This document shows positions 21,966 to 26,933 of a stretch of 64,000 nucleotides of DNA, one piece after another (positions within the stretch are counted from its first letter, which is position 1; each line of letters begins with the position of its first letter). Where the stretch lies: IMG/VR virus record IMGVR_UViG_2875713109_000001; one strand, written 5' to 3'. Position numbers and translations under genes: made by a program. This stretch comes from a virus. Taxonomy: Duplodnaviria; Heunggongvirae; Uroviricota; Caudoviricetes. Below the pieces are notes generated by a model. The model was not told the origin of the DNA. It saw only the letters and a program-made list of their open reading frames with translations, and did no database searches.

Positions 21966-24226
21966 AAGAGCTGTGCTATGGATCTGTTTGCAGTGGAATT
22001 GAAGCCGCGAGTATTGCCTGGGAACCGTTGGGTATGCGTCCGGCGTGGTTTGCTGAAATCGAGCCTTTTCCATCTGCCGTTCTTGCGCACCGCTGGCCCC
22101 ATGTCGCCAACCTTGGCGACATGACAAAACTTGCCAAAAAAGTCCTGGCTGGGGAAATCGAATCCCCTGATGTGCTCGTCGGGGGAACACCTTGTCAGGC
22201 ATTCAGTATCGCTGGATTACGTGGTGGGCTTGATGATGAGCGTGGCGCGCTAACTTTAAAGTATGTGGAGCTTGCAAATGCAATTGACGACAAACGGGCT
22301 GAGTCATTTCTCAAACCAGCCGTTATCGTCTGGGAAAATGTCCCAGGAGTCTTGTCATCGGCAGATAACGCCTTCGGATGTTTCCTTGCCGGATTGGCTG
22401 GAGAAGATGCGCCATTTGAACCAGGTGATCGACCTGAATCAGGAAAAAGTAACGCGTTCTGGCGGTGGGATGGCAAAACCGGTTGCCATGCTCCAAAGTG
22501 GCCGCAGTGTGGTTGTATTTATGGACCGCAGCGAAAGGTGGCCTGGAGAATCCTTGATGCCCAATACTTCGGAGTGGCACAACGACGCCGACGCGTGTTT
22601 GTTGTCGCAAGTGCTCGAACAGACCTCGATCCCGCAACGGTACTTTTTGAGTTCGAAGGCGTGCGCCGGGATATTGCGCCGAGCCGAAAAAAGAAGGAAA
22701 TCGCTTCCGCCATTATTGCAAATGGCGCTGCAATCAGTGGCGAAAGCCTAAATCCATGCCTACATGCTGACATGCCACCCGGTATGAAATCGACGAAAGC
22801 CGTAAACGCTTTCAGGATGGCAGCATTTGGGGAATATATTGACGATGAAACCGCATCGACAGTAAAGGCAAGAGATTTTAAAGATGCCACTGACCTTGCC
22901 GTTTTTAGCAGCACAGGAGCAGCTTTTTGGTCAGAAGGGCATGGTACATTGCGGGCACGTGAGCAAGAAAGCCATGAGCATCTTGTTACATTGGCTTTTC
23001 CTGAGCGTATGAGCGGTACACAACATGCTGCAACTAAGAATACTTCACCATCTCTAATGGCTAAAAATCCAACAGCTGTTTGCTATGAAGTAAGAAACGC
23101 AGAAGTAGCTGTCCGCCGTCTTACCCCTGTCGAATGTGAAAGGCTGCAAGGTTTTCCTGATGGGCATACGTTGATCCCGACGGAAAAGCGTAAAAAAGTT
23201 AGTTCAGATGAACTGGCATATCTTCGCAATCACTATCCAGATTTAAGCGAAGAAGAGGCCGTGATGCTTGCAGCTGACGGACCGCGTTACAAAGCGATCG
23301 GCAATAGTATGGCAATACCAGTAATGCGCTGGATTGGCGATCGGATTACTAAGGCCGTATGTCGGCAGAAAGAAGGAAGTGAAACAAAAGAGCGAAAAGT
23401 TAAACCAGCGGCAGAATTCGAACGGTCCATATTCAAATGGGCTGGTGGAAAATTTGGTGTTCTGGAACAAATCTTTCGCTATTTGCCAGAAGGGAAGCGC
23501 CTGATTGAACCTTTCGTTGGTGGCGGAGCTGTCTTCATGAATGCCGGATACCAGGAAAATCTGCTAAATGATGTGAATGCTGACCTGATTAACTTTTACA
23601 AGACTCTGCAACGCGAGGCGCATTCACTTATCACTCTGGCACATCGTTTTTTCCTGGACTACAACACCCAGGAGGGATACTTGGCAGTACGGAATGCGTT
23701 TAACAAACAAGTCTATGATGATTTACATCGCGCAGCGGCGTTTTTGTTCCTGAACCGACATTGTTTTAACGGATTGACGCGTTACAACCAGGCCGGTGAG
23801 TTCAATGTCGGTTATGGGAAGTATAAAACTCCGTATTTCCCATTACAGGAGATGGAAGCCTTCCTCGGTGCGGAAGGGCGGTCTGAGTTTGTATGCGGTG
23901 ATTTTGCAGCGGTGATTGAAGCTGCCGGAGAAGGAGATGTCATCTTTTGCGATCCGCCGTATGAACCGCTCCCCAATACAGAGGGGTTCACGAACTATTC
24001 CGGTCATGACTTTAAGTTTGAAGAGCAAAAACGCCTGGTGTCTCTGTTGACGGATGCTCATCGTCGAGGTGCAAAGGTTCTCATTACTAACAGTGGCGCG
24101 CCAAACATCAGAGAGCTTTATCATGACAGTGGCTTCAGAGTGGAACCTCTTTTTGCCAGACGTTCTGTGTCTTGTAAGGGGGACACTCGAGGTGTAGCTC
24201 ATGACGTTTTGGGTATATTGCTCTAA
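21962..24226 (+). CDS. dmt: bifunctional DNA methyltransferase Dmt (N-terminal C5-cytosine MTase-like, C-terminal Dam-like N6-adenine MTase)
   Basis: 754 aa; [12 protein letters not shown] and ENVPG (C5 motifs IV and VI); C-terminal [13 protein letters not shown]..., DPPY (IFCDPPYEP). Confidence 0.85.
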
Positions 24227-24233
24227 TAAATTA
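24217..24233 (+). promoter_or_regulatory. C1 operator-like site at start of tRNA-ban operon leader
   Basis: attgctctaataaatta overlapping dmt stop; TAATAT -10-like hexamer 10 bp downstream. Confidence 0.6.
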
Positions 24234-24407
24234 ATTAGTGTAATATCGCCTCAATGAATCGTGATTTATAGAGCGATTTAGCTGTTAGCCGCGACAGGCG
24301 CGGCGGTAAGCATGGCTGGGCCTAGTCCTCCCAGACAAACCACCGAGTTGCCAGGTTGACCATGCGCCTAAGTGGCAACGCCGAAGTGCGTTACGAGCTT
24401 CCAGTTT

Positions 24408-24433
24408 GCCCATCTTCGGGTGGGCGTTTTTTT
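24408..24433 (+). terminator. intrinsic terminator or attenuator in operon leader
   Basis: gcccatc-ttcg-ggtgggc (UUCG tetraloop) followed by GTTTTTTT. Confidence 0.5.
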
Positions 24434-24899
24434 CAGGGTTTTCGTCATGGTTAGCGACTTTGCGGCGGTTTAGAAACTGACCATTAAAGTAAATGCAAAC
24501 GATGATCTGATGATGGTAGCGGCCTAAGAAACCAGATGCCACGGGGTATGAGTCGTCCCCCGTCAAAAAAATCGACCGCAGAGTGTCCCCGTCTGTGTAT
24601 TAGGGAACGGGGAGGCACAACAGGTAAGGGCGCTGGTGTGATTAACCAGATGAACGAGAAGGGGCCATCTGTTGGTCAGCGTCCTTTCCTGTTGCGTTTT
24701 CTTTTCAGCGTAACAGCGGTGCTTAACAGCACTTTGGGTACAGTTCCACGAATTTACGGGTATATCCCGTCATGCTGAAGGCGCTAATCACGCTGGAAGC
24801 CAGGGTTGTGCATCCCCTGTTACCGAATTGCAGCCAGGGCGCGGTGCGCCGAAAAGCATACGGAGGTGGAAGCCCTCGCCGGAGACGTACCCGGCAAGT

Positions 24900-24975
24900 G
24901 ATGGTGTAGCTCAGCGGTTAGAGCGGTTGACTGTTAATCAACGGGTCGATGGTTCAAATCCATCCACCATCGCCA
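24900..24975 (+). tRNA. tRNA-Asn (anticodon GUU)
   Basis: Cloverleaf folded by hand: acceptor gatggtg/caccatc, anticodon stem gttga/tcaac with loop ctGTTaa, T-arm gatgg-ttcaaat-ccatc, 3' CCA encoded. Confidence 0.85.
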
Positions 24976-24977
24976 AT

Positions 24978-25053
24978 GCCGGTTTAGCTCAGTTGGTAGA
25001 GCGCCTGCCTTGTAAGCAGGATGTCAGCGGTTCGAGTCCGTTAATCGGCACCA
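24978..25053 (+). tRNA. tRNA-Thr (anticodon UGU)
   Basis: Acceptor gccggtt/aatcggc, D-arm gctcagttggtagagc, anticodon stem cctgc/gcagg loop ctTGTaa, T-loop ttcgagt, CCA encoded. Confidence 0.85.
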
Positions 25054-25785
25054 GCACAACAGGTAAGGGTATTTTGCGACGCCGGAGATCGCCGAGCTTG
25101 GCAGAGGGTTCGAATCCCTACGAAGTACCCTTACCGTTGTGATGAAGTGCAGCTCTTTGAAGCAACCAGAAGATAAGCATCTGGCTTCACAACATAAACC
25201 GCAGGAACGACCAATAAACGGTAGTCCGTATGGAGAACACCCCGTTGAGGAAGAGGCCTGGCCGGAACCGTAACCGGCACTACAACGTTGAGAACACTGG
25301 CGTAACGGGGTCATATCCCAATCTACGAATAAATGTTGCGTTGCAGCGTGACAACCAGTGTTCTCAACATTGTGGTGAATGCACAGGCTGATGTGCCGCA
25401 ACTACAGTAGTGCGCGCTTTGCGGGGCTTGCTACAACCCTGTGTCGGAGTTCAGCACCGACCATCACAGTTTGATTCTCTGGCATGAGCATAACGCTGAA
25501 ATAAGTCCAGTCTGGTGCGGCCCGATCACCCGCCGTTAGCTCCACGAAACGGAGCACGTAACAGGTAAGAGCATTCTCCTGTAACGGGTTCATATCCCAA
25601 TCTACAGGTCCACCAAGAATGCTCTTTCCGTTGCGGTGAATGCGGCTAAGCGCACGCGGGGAAATGGTTATATCAGTCCATTCATTTCTCCTTGTTTCCC
25701 CGTCCACGGTGGATAACCAGCCAAAGGACACCGGGAGGCACCCGGCACCGCAGCTTTTTTATTCGTTAAATAATGGAGTGAGAGG

Positions 25786-26022
25786 ATGCAGAACAATCCG
25801 AACAAATGTCGAACGCTATGGGTGCGGTTATATATTTATGCCGTCCTCTGTTTGATTGTGTCACTGGTTCTGTATGTTTGGCTTTTGCCAAATATGATCT
25901 CATCTAACAGCACAATACTTGTATTGTTGGGAGTCCTTCTCGCGCTCATTTACCCGGCTTTCGCAGTAGTCTTTTTTCGTGAAAAAACCAGGAAATTAAT
26001 TAATGAAAAAAACGTTGATTAG
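25786..26022 (+). CDS. small membrane protein (78 aa)
   Basis: Two hydrophobic segments; overlaps start of downstream lipoprotein gene. Confidence 0.45.
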   Translation: MQNNPNKCRTLWVRLYIYAVLCLIVSLVLYVWLLPNMISSNSTILVLLGVLLALIYPAFAVVFFREKTRKLINEKNVD

Positions 26023-26830
26023 TGCAGCGATTATTTTGGGTTCTTTATGTCTGACCGGATGCGATCGGGTAGAGCCAGGTAACGTAGGGATCAAAGTAAA
26101 TAAGCTGGGGGATGATAAAGGTATCGGTGAAGTAGTTGGCGTTGGTCGCTACTGGACAGGCTTGAATACTGAAGTTTATATCTTCCCGACCTTTAAGCAA
26201 ATGAAGACATACGATGAGCCGTTCAGCTTCCAGATGAGCGACGGAACAACCATTGGTTACCACATCGGCGTAGCCTACAAGGTTGATCCAGCAAAAGTCA
26301 CAACGGTATTTCAGACCTATCGCAAAGGTGTAGATGATATTACTGATACCGATCTACGCCAGAAGGTTGCAGATGCTCTGAACCGGTTAGCCAGCAAAAT
26401 GACCACCGACAAATTTATCGACGGTGGCAAATCTGAATTGCTTGATGCAGCCCTTAAAGACATTCAGGAAGAAATGACGCCAATCGGCATTCAGGTGATG
26501 AGCCTCTCTTATGTAGGTAAGCCAGAATACCCGCCAACAGTTATTGACAGTATTAACGCCAAAGTCACGGCAAACCAAAAAACCCTGCAACGCGAGCAAG
26601 AGGTCAAACAACGTGAAGCAGAGGCCAACATGCTGCGCGCGGAAGCTGCCGGACAGGCTGATGCTATTCGCACAAAAGCCCAGGCCGAAGCTGATGCCAT
26701 TCGTTTACGTGGTGAAGCTCTGCGCCAGAACCCCGGTGTTATGGAGTTGGAAGCGATCAACAAATGGAACGGTACATTACCGCAGTATATGACCAGTAAT
26801 ACCGCTGTTCCGTTTGTTCCGGTGAAATAA
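26003..26830 (+). CDS. lipoprotein with SPFH/band-7-like domain and coiled-coil C-terminus
   Basis: Signal plus lipobox LTGC; central domain then EAEANMLRAEAAGQADAIRTKAQAEADAIR helical repeats typical of SPFH family. Confidence 0.5.
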   Translation: MKKTLISAAIILGSLCLTGCDRVEPGNVGIKVNKLGDDKGIGEVVGVGRYWTGLNTEVYIFPTFKQMKTYDEPFSFQMSDGTTIGYHIGVAYKVDPAKVTTVFQTYRKGVDDITDTDLRQKVADALNRLASKMTTDKFIDGGKSELLDAALKDIQEEMTPIGIQVMSLSYVGKPEYPPTVIDSINAKVTANQKTLQREQEVKQREAEANMLRAEAAGQADAIRTKAQAEADAIRLRGEALRQNPGVMELEAINKWNGTLPQYMTSNTAVPFVPVK

Positions 26831-26857: not shown

Positions 26858-26933
26858 GGCCCTTTAGCTCAGTGGTTAGAGCTGGCGACTCATAATCGCA
26901 CGGTCACCGGTTCAAGTCCGGTAGGGGCCACCA
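26858..26933 (+). tRNA. tRNA with CAU anticodon, Ile2 (ileX)-type
   Basis: Near-identical over most positions to recalled E. coli tRNA-Ile2; acceptor ggccctt/aggggcc, anticodon loop ctCATaa, CCA encoded. Confidence 0.8.

Follow-up and report, generated by a model that had tools for sequence, protein, structure and literature searches.

Organization of the ban operon front and its tmRNA-like module

The region described here is the front of the ban operon of a P1-type phage. It belongs to a stretch of 64,000 nucleotides (nt), IMG/VR virus record IMGVR_UViG_2875713109_000001, which is called the window below and whose numbering is used throughout. In this region the window has 99.4-99.8% identity with phage P1, and the annotation of the P1 record AF234172 was mapped onto it with an offset of 20649. 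An initial annotation, made from the sequence alone, had described the interval 24217-24900, from an operator at the end of dmt up to the tRNA-Asn gene, as a single structured leader of 650 nt. This description is not confirmed: the interval is a mosaic of distinct RNA modules that differ widely in their conservation. One of these modules looks in its organization like the message half of transfer-messenger RNA (tmRNA), and has the following parts:

24434-24612, plus strand: tmRNA-like module, about 180 nt, directly 3' of an intrinsic terminator
24434-24494, plus strand: invariant A/U-rich 5' segment, GGTTTTCG...GCGACTTTGCGG...TTTAGAAACTGACCA...TAAAT, which has a TAG in frame, eight codons 5' of the resume codon
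24495-24527, plus strand: tag frame GCA AAC GAT GAT CTG ATG ATG GTA GCG GCC TAA, i.e., ANDDLMMVAA and a stop
24514-24534, plus strand: P5-like hairpin (strands 24514-17/24531-34), the last tag codons being paired and the stop codon lying in the loop
24542-24576, plus strand: pseudoknot a (stem 1, 24542-46/24558-62; stem 2, 24552-55/24573-76)
24577-24612, plus strand: pseudoknot b (stem 1, 24577-82/24592-97; stem 2, 24587-91/24608-12)

The module is widely distributed. In a distant BLAST comparison of the leader with 50,697 phage records, about 300 records matched, nearly all of them only at 24437-24631; with 24434-24640 alone as the query, 267 phage records match. The carriers are Punavirus, Ackermannviridae (phiEa2809, phiMAM1, Kuttervirus), Schitoviridae Gamaleyavirus (ECBP1, Bp4, KP8), Drexlerviridae (CS01) and Aeromonas Roufvirus. 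A strict pattern scan yields at least 120 IMG/VR loci and 4 matches in 185,579 bacterial species genomes, of which at least one (L129) shares the P1 tag and the downstream layout. The invariant 5' segment is present in 81/81 loci that are not of P1 type. Several copies lie just downstream of a TTGACA-17-TAGATT promoter, and nearby tRNA genes, where present, are mostly on the same strand as the module.

No other part of the leader is as well conserved as the module within the P1 family, its variable columns amounting to 5% for the 5' segment, 12% for the tag and 18% for P5 together with the pseudoknots. The corresponding values are 68-81% for the flanking parts and 25% for the terminator, vs. 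81% upstream of the latter.

The matching DNA almost always carries no annotated feature in phage records. It must be mentioned that open reading frames (ORFs) deposited as «hypothetical protein» overlie the module in OY978778, PP889499, NC_029042, ON018986, KU760857 and others, some of them on the opposite strand, and that one deposited record bears the label «RIIA lysis inhibitor» over it. These ORFs and this label are probably mis-annotations of an RNA gene.

The tag was compared in 128 copies, collected with a pattern that fixes its first 8 bases. It has exactly 10 codons in 128/128 copies; the other two frames have no length constraint. The 17 peptides encoded have the form AN(D/E)(D/E/N)...(hydrophobic)-A/V-A. 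The 32 distinct nucleotide versions have a summed entropy of 6.3, 4.0 and 9.3 at codon positions 1, 2 and 3, respectively, and the terminal Ala-Ala is written GCA GCC, GCG GCG or GCT GCT. The tags of three unrelated phages read ANDNEFKVAA, ANDDVVLMAA and ANDDLMLMAA, followed by one, two and one stop codons, respectively, to be compared with ANDENYALAA and two stop codons in E. coli ssrA. A TAG is found at codon -8 and no ATG, GTG or TTG precedes the resume codon in any of the 128 copies. All that characterizes a tmRNA's mRNA-like domain is thus present, i.e., a resume codon with no initiation signal, a short tag ending in a hydrophobic residue and Ala-Ala, and a stop. These results show that the tag is under purifying selection as a coding frame.

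The RNA structure was tested on the larger subtype (type 2: 61 modules, 57 distinct sequences) as a P5 hairpin plus two H-type pseudoknots. P1, phiEa2809 and ECBP1 belong to the second subtype (type 1), for which the stems were taken by anchor-based extraction, the MAFFT alignment misregistering them. In type 2, 97.1% of the cells are paired, vs. 33-51% when the partners are slid by 1-3 columns; 11 of the 21 pairs are changed on both sides, and the covariation score is reached by none of 500 shuffles. RNAalifold independently recovers P5 and the first stems of both pseudoknots. The P5 helix is 100% paired in type 2, with an exchange of G-C to A-U in 25 of the 57 sequences, and P5 is visible in the single-sequence folds of most type-1 variants. 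The helices of pseudoknot a are 99-100% paired in type 2 (5 pairs changed on both sides); stem 2 of pseudoknot b, GCCC/GGGC, lengthens in some copies of this type to GCCCTGA/TCAGGGC by matched insertions. Compensatory variants also occur in type 1 (P1, phiEa2809, ECBP1 and others), namely in stem 1 of pseudoknot a (CGGGG/CCCCG, CTGGG/CCCAG, CAGGG/CCCTG, CAGGA/TCCTG) and in both stems of pseudoknot b, stem 1 having six variants, all fully paired, and stem 2 being CCCCG/CGGGG or CCCCT/AGGGG. These data show that the helices are under selection as RNA structure.

The tmRNA order of a P5 containing the stop codon, then pseudoknots, is therefore found with the support of covariation, the pseudoknots being two and not three. 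The GC-rich hairpins that the initial annotation had noticed at 24560-24610 are real structure, though misread: they are the strands of the two pseudoknots. This is also the reason why the interval is unremarkable as a plain fold (z -0.75).

Upstream of the tag, no supported helix of the kind of tmRNA pseudoknot PK1 was found in the 5' segment with RNAalifold. A GCGG in this segment resembles the 5' strand of the PK1 helix and has no partner in cis. The UUUGCG/UGCAAA helix proposed by RNAalifold sits in invariant columns, hence gives no covariation signal either way. An 8-bp helix ATGGTTAG/CTGACCAT in the P1 5' segment was rejected, as it is not conserved in CS01.

The 5' RNA and its terminator

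Upstream of the module the following features are found:

24201-24246, plus strand: sigma-70 promoters P2ban and P1ban (P1ban -35 at 24218-23, -10 at 24241-46), taken from the deposited annotation alone
24217-24244: bivalent C1 operator Oban-ab (formerly Op72ab), overlapping the dmt stop codon (annotation of AF234172)
24217-24233: Op72a/Oban-a, ATTGCTCTAATAAATTA, read directly in the sequence
up to 24226: dmt, 754 amino acids (aa), stop codon 24224-26 (deposited record AF234172)
24253-24433, plus strand: 5' RNA of about 180 nt, ending at the terminator, its putative start being placed from the annotated -10 box
24407-24433, plus strand: intrinsic terminator with a G+C-rich stem of 7-8 bp, a UUCG loop and a U7 tract

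The operator announced at 24217 is indeed there, ATTGCTCTAATAAATTA matching the annotated Op72a/Oban-a, with which Oban-b and the P1ban/P2ban promoters overlap in the P1 record. A simple consensus promoter scan detected nothing at the site of P2ban/P1ban.

The strong UUCG-loop terminator placed at 24408-24433 is confirmed as well. Its stem is formed by 24408-24414/24419-24425 and is followed by seven U at 24427-24433; the hairpin has a folding energy of -12.8 kcal/mol (z -3.15) and only 1 of 200 shuffles folds as well. Terminator-like sites are no more frequent in the region than expected by chance (2, being two versions of the same hairpin, vs. 2.4 expected). What speaks for the terminator is thus the quality of the hairpin and the fact that every P1-family variant has kept it, in one case with altered pairs. 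Transcription from the repressor-controlled promoter reaches the tRNAs and ban only by passing it, so that some control over read-through is conceivable. A terminated RNA of about 180 nt, from the ban promoter (Pban) to 24433, is plausible.

In the P1 record about 24341-24442 is labelled «dicF-like region», an existing annotation that the initial annotation had overlooked, as it had the conserved RNA genes in the remaining 470 nt. P1 24306-24400 is homologous to the segment of the Qin prophage upstream of dicF (local alignment 79, vs. a shuffle mean of 18; z 22.5). The P1 hairpin GTTGCCAGG...CCTAAGTGGCAAC at 24347-24379 lies within this homologous part, and the aligned Qin DNA contains the hairpin GTTGTCAGGTTGACCATACGCTTAAGTGACAAC, also upstream of dicF; both loci close with a terminator hairpin plus U-tract. 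However, most of the 53-nt DicF has no P1 counterpart: at most its first 15 nt or so align, onto the P1 terminator hairpin. The Rfam DicF model (RF00039) has no match in the P1 leader at E up to 10. Pairing with the ribosome-binding site of ftsZ, which is reached by only 17 of 500 shuffles for the real DicF, is matched for the P1 RNA by 306/500 shuffles (terminator-proximal 53 nt) or 197/500 (full 5' RNA). For these three reasons, i.e., no Rfam match, an overlap of about 15 nt and no ftsZ pairing above chance, the P1 5' RNA was rejected as a DicF or as DicF-like in action. The label reflects homology of the locus, not of the small RNA (sRNA) or of its action.

In phage D6 (L134, 1440-1540) the terminator hairpin and the tag module occur together behind a different upstream region, which contains a second terminator-like hairpin after a structural gene and has no dmt. 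This arrangement indicates that the terminator hairpin moves together with the tag module rather than with Pban.

As had been stated initially, no plausible ORF precedes the tRNA-Asn gene. The two ORFs detected mechanically in the leader have no Pfam match. Among 33 distinct P1-family sequences, 5 have the first one intact (80 aa, 24536-24778), and the variation within it is flat over the codon positions (44/47/40); the second, of 93 aa on the minus strand, is intact in 3. Both were rejected as genes.

Relation to tmRNA and possible role in the rescue of stalled ribosomes

By its anatomy and coding the module is a tmRNA derivative, and not a recent copy of the host gene. It is probably functional. 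On balance, the region from Pban/Op72 to tRNA-Asn is best read as the front of a polycistronic stable-RNA operon, rather than as a leader, and as including this tmRNA-derived module with its putative trans-translation tag. It would comprise, in order: (i) the RNA of about 180 nt that ends at the strong terminator, transcription reading through to everything downstream; (ii) the module, with 5' segment, resume codon GCA, 10-codon tag, stop, P5 and two H-type pseudoknots; (iii) a long hairpin, which may be a processing stalk or a cassette boundary; (iv) a P1-specific spacer, then the tRNAs. It is proposed, more tentatively, that the tag is actually translated in trans-translation, the module being the coding piece of a split rescue RNA. 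The tRNA-like entry function would then come in trans from host tmRNA-SmpB or from a tRNA-like RNA of the phage, and the proteins on stalled ribosomes of infected cells would receive a degradation tag specified by the phage.

The comparison with known tmRNAs leads to the following. (i) With one-piece tmRNA (RF00023) the module has in common a GCA resume codon after an A/U-rich stretch, a 10-codon tag starting with AND and ending with a hydrophobic residue and Ala-Ala, like ANDENYALAA of E. coli, a P5-type hairpin with the stop codon in its loop, and, 3' of the tag, H-type pseudoknots. It differs by the absence of acceptor stem, T-arm, flanking CCA and PK1, by two downstream pseudoknots instead of three, by its size (about 180 nt vs. 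363 nt), by a similarity confined to the tag region, and by being phage-encoded in clusters of tRNAs and small RNAs. (ii) In the two-piece permuted tmRNAs of Alpha- and Betaproteobacteria and cyanobacteria (RF01849-51, RF04321) the tag RNA is separate from the acceptor piece, as would be the case here; the permuted models of Rfam match the phage tag region, and relaxed ARAGORN calls it «permuted». However, in the known forms both pieces come from one gene, the coding piece has the 5' acceptor strand and conserved helices join the pieces; the P1 module has no acceptor strand, no identified partner piece and no inter-piece helix. (iii) The «no-CDS» tmRNAs, without coding sequence, of mycobacteriophage DS6A and some plastids (PMC4131195, PMC11915505) are likewise reduced to one functional half, phage-borne in DS6A. 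They are the mirror image of the module: DS6A keeps the tRNA-like domain without tag, the P1 module keeps tag, P5 and pseudoknots.

The tRNA-like domain was looked for in several ways. The acceptor stem, G3:U70, T-arm and 3' CCA of tmRNA are not found in the module, and in the promoter-proximal copies only a few bases precede the conserved GTTTTCG, thus leaving no room for an acceptor strand. It is for lack of a tRNA-like domain that ARAGORN and Rfam miss the module. The Rfam models tmRNA_permuted, alpha and beta match the tag region only, with 24-33.5 bits for a cut-off of 47 (E about 7e-4 in two phages), and permissive Rfam scans of the leader gave only sub-threshold tmRNA hits and chance hits of microRNA type on the long hairpins. 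When its thresholds are lowered to 80-90% of the default, ARAGORN does report these very tags, it being understood that false positives are abundant at 80%. A relaxed call of this kind in ECBP1 was discarded, since the 5' acceptor strand that it uses falls within the upstream hairpin and has no conserved counterpart in L091. As to separate partners, i.e., an acceptor piece joined by intermolecular helices, tRNA-like RNAs exist nearby (25052-25140 in the window; L132, 1390-1515) and none is universal. The unit with D-arm and T-arm at 25056-25136 was rejected as the missing tRNA-like domain in the part of a universal partner, being found in only 34/128 loci; duplex screens of the module against the tRNA-like units of P1 itself were not above shuffles. 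The T-arm and GCTCCA of Kuttervirus were also rejected as a tmRNA 3' end, since they are part of a separate 126-nt RNA which is not adjacent to the module in related phages.

Several of the results weigh against the reading preferred here. With default settings ARAGORN calls E. coli ssrA but no tmRNA in the window, the flanks of the 128 copies or 1.13 Mb of loci; the module is not matched by the Rfam tmRNA model RF00023. Its plain similarity to E. coli ssrA concerns the tag region only and is not significant (z 0 to 2.3). The tRNA-like halves that enter the relaxed ARAGORN calls lack conservation among relatives, and no tRNA-like neighbour accompanies the module everywhere, not even the unit with D-arm and T-arm. 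Without a tRNA-like domain there is no known route by which a tag template enters the A site. The first 8 tag bases carry no information, having been fixed by the pattern of collection. Lastly, the terminator directly upstream of the module, which transcription from Pban has to pass, looks strong.

A possible link with the host is the invariant core GCGACUUUGCGG(G)UUUUUAG of the 5' segment (24455-24478), which is complementary to E. coli tmRNA at nt ~67-92 (ssrA 64-96, L003), i.e., to a stretch that comprises the 3' strand of PK1, the linker and, at the resume site, GUC-GCA. About 18 bp with one bulge would be formed (-24 to -30 kcal/mol); 30 of the 31 distinct cores land there, and pairing is preserved in the ECBP1 variant of the core. 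However, an equally good duplex is obtained with 25-27 of 1000 dinucleotide shuffles, the pairing relies on U-runs facing A-runs, and the cores are not mutually independent, so that the pairing with host tmRNA is marginal. It is a lead, not a finding. In a more specific form of the trans-translation proposal, to which only a small probability is given, the module would be a tmRNA consisting of the coding piece only that takes over host rescue: its 5' segment would dock on the region of host tmRNA from PK1 to the resume codon, or on a phage tRNA-like RNA; delivery to stalled ribosomes would be by SmpB and the tRNA-like domain of the host, and these ribosomes would resume on the phage template and attach the phage tag. 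If true, this would be a split tmRNA assembled in trans from RNAs of two different genomes.

As an alternative, the module would be untranslated and act as an RNA mimic or antisense against host trans-translation, e.g., by titrating SmpB or by pairing of its 5' segment with the region from PK1 to the resume codon. This is given a low probability. It would agree with the lack of a tRNA-like domain and with the 18 bp formed at one site by nearly all distinct cores, and has a precedent in the opposite direction, the domain-only tmRNA of DS6A, which inhibits tmRNA (PMC4131195; PMC11915505); but a decoy would need neither an exact 10-codon frame, nor an excess of third-position variation, nor a hydrophobic-Ala-Ala end, and the complementarity is only marginally above chance. 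It is very improbable that the module is a decaying, functionless fragment of a captured ssrA riding with phage tRNA clusters. Although the domain that defines tmRNA is absent and the surrounding RNA clusters are mosaic and prone to recombination, the module has been kept in no fewer than five phage lineages, with compensatory helix changes, its frame is intact in all 128 copies and its variability is the lowest of the whole P1 leader. A small protein translated conventionally, from the GCA frame or from the overlapping ATG CAA ACG frame, can practically be dismissed. An ATG overlaps the resume codon (AAATGCAAACGA) in all copies, but its frame has 5-9 codons (13 in one copy) and is not conserved, and no Shine-Dalgarno sequence is visible. 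With a stop 8 codons upstream of the GCA frame, no start codon in any copy and an ATG frame of variable length, ordinary initiation is excluded.

The remaining alternative concerns the whole stretch, taken as a regulatory leader in which the terminator at 24408-24433 attenuates transcription from Pban to the tRNAs and ban, or ends a 200-nt sRNA, as initially supposed; it too is given a low probability. The terminator is real, is kept in every P1-family variant and sits between the only annotated promoter and the downstream genes, and attenuation is compatible with the stable-RNA operon preferred here if the hairpin is a point of partial termination. Nothing specific to an attenuator was found, however. 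In the fold of the whole 191-nt 5' RNA (simple folding only) there is no antiterminator, the terminator being kept in both the minimum free energy and the centroid structures. The P1 leader contains no leader peptide, no conserved leader ORF and no Rfam cis-regulatory family, riboswitch or leader, even at E up to 10. Moreover, the 470 nt past the terminator are separate conserved RNA modules, and in D6 the hairpin accompanies the tag module behind a different upstream region. The interpretation as a single leader with attenuator is thus only partly supported.

The leader and its terminator are themselves ordinary and were partly annotated already; the tag module is the new part. tmRNA has so far been described as needing both halves, the tRNA-like one for entry into the ribosome and the message for the tag, and the incomplete natural forms reported so far keep only the tRNA half. 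The tmRNA censuses screened RefSeq viruses (PMC4131195; PMC11915505). In that of 2014, phage tmRNAs came only from mycobacteriophages and Bacillus phage G (PMC4131195). The 2025 census counts 79 phage tmRNA sequences, explicitly rejects forms in which any one of the required segments is missing, and describes «no-CDS» forms (tRNA-like domain only, e.g., DS6A) and not the converse (PMC11915505). The tag peptides were not found in the searchable literature, and the 2026 Pas/STnc100 preprint has no mention of tmRNA (bioRxiv 10.64898/2026.05.13.724894). A form with the message half only has thus apparently not been described before in the tmRNA censuses or the searchable literature, a scope that does not extend to the P1 genome paper (Lobocka 2004) and the CoCoNuT preprint v1 (in which tmRNA is mentioned 54 times and Drexlerviridae once). 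A conserved frame of this kind in hundreds of phages, P1 included, implies either an unknown route of access to the ribosome or a manipulation of host rescue and proteolysis by phages. Automated annotation overlooks these genes because ARAGORN and Rfam require a tRNA-like domain. The P1 «leader», and probably the plp/upl region too, need to be re-annotated as an array of RNA genes.

The neighbouring RNA array

Downstream of the module the following features are found:

24612-24700, plus strand: long irregular hairpin A, arms CAACAGGTAAGGGCGCTG / CAGCGTCCTTTCCTGTTG (-41.7 kcal/mol, z -5.4, 0/200 shuffles)
24701-24899, plus strand: P1-family-specific spacer, ending in the hairpin GCCGGAGACGTACCCGGC at 24878-24895, directly before tRNA-Asn
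24900-24975, plus strand: tRNA-Asn (GTT), found by ARAGORN (Rfam tRNA, 74.5 bits)
24978-25053, plus strand: tRNA-Thr (TGT), found by ARAGORN (Rfam tRNA, 72.9 bits)
25052-25140, plus strand: long hairpin B, enclosing a tRNA-like unit (-38.1 kcal/mol, z -5.0)
about 25278-25377, plus strand: third long hairpin (-51.6 kcal/mol, z -5.7)

The spacer 24701-24899 has no match outside the P1 family; 68-79% of its columns are variable and its fold is unexceptional (z +0.6). The tRNA-like unit of hairpin B has a D-arm (GCGA...TCGC, the loop containing GG) and a T-arm (AGGGTTCGAATCCCT) and no anticodon arm. In L013, L031, L051 and L067, which are non-P1 phages, this recurrent unit adjoins the tag module.

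The tag module is one of the cassettes in arrays of structured RNAs, the others being long irregular hairpins, STnc100/PasD-type units, tRNAs and tRNA-like units. The long hairpins carry conserved arms (ACAACAGGTAAGAGCATT...AGTGCTCTTTCCGTTGTG) that enclose variable inserts. The 15-nt arm CACAACAGGTAAGGG of hairpin A (24617) is repeated in the 5' arm of hairpin B (25056), and the arms ACAACAGGTAAG(A/G)G...CTCTTTCCGTTGTG recur upstream and downstream of the module in other phages. More generally, phages of different families have conserved imperfect inverted repeats ACAACAGGTAAG(A/G)GCATT ... AGTGCTCTT(T/A)CCGTTGTG with constant A-G and U-U mismatches (e.g., L010, L012, L014, L029, L105; 24617 and 25056 in the window), which flank variable inserts 30-115 nt long and separate RNA modules. 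A second type of hairpin arm, CCCACCAATGAGAGC...GCTCTCATTCGTGGG, is also present. The long hairpins may be processing stalks of RNase III type, or cassette or recombination boundaries for the exchange of modules.

In Salmonella phage 38 (Kuttervirus; L132, 1390-1515) the 126-nt RNA already mentioned forms a cloverleaf-like four-way junction, which also occurs in L082, L103 and L124. It has an acceptor stem of 6/7 bp (GCCGTTA/AAACGGC), a T-arm and an encoded CCA, and its 3' end resembles that of tmRNA (GGGTTCGACTCCC...GCTCCA); no tRNA finder calls it.

The initial annotation had counted upl and plp among the downstream genes of the operon; in the P1 record both ORFs are on the minus strand (25022-25780). 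Beneath them, the plus-strand segments 25340-25400, 25520-25580 and 25600-25660 recur in 18-21 loci of non-P1 type, and a sub-threshold match to STnc100 (RF02076) is found at 25632-25752 (37.8 bits for a cut-off of 47); within 24217-24900 nothing matches this STnc100/PasD model. Annotation of the «plp» and «upl» ORFs on the minus strand may be an artefact over an array of RNA genes. STnc100/PasD RNAs are structured prophage RNAs of the same clusters, and the hairpin at 24878-24895 seems, as judged by eye, to resemble the 3' hairpin of RNAs of this type. They differ from the tag module in being its neighbours, and are described as base-pairing sRNAs, with no tag frame (bioRxiv 10.64898/2026.05.13.724894).

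In the P1 record ban is located further downstream of the two tRNAs. At 25786-26830 of the window, a gene for a 275-aa SPFH/Band-7 protein (Pfam E 1e-30), preceded by a 78-aa ORF, occupies the position that tciA, tciB and tciC have in reference P1, just upstream of trnI and ban. ARAGORN calls a tRNA-Met (CAT) at 26858-26933. This is trnI of the P1 record, i.e., a tRNA-Ile2 of ileX type, whose CAT anticodon is modified and reads AUA.

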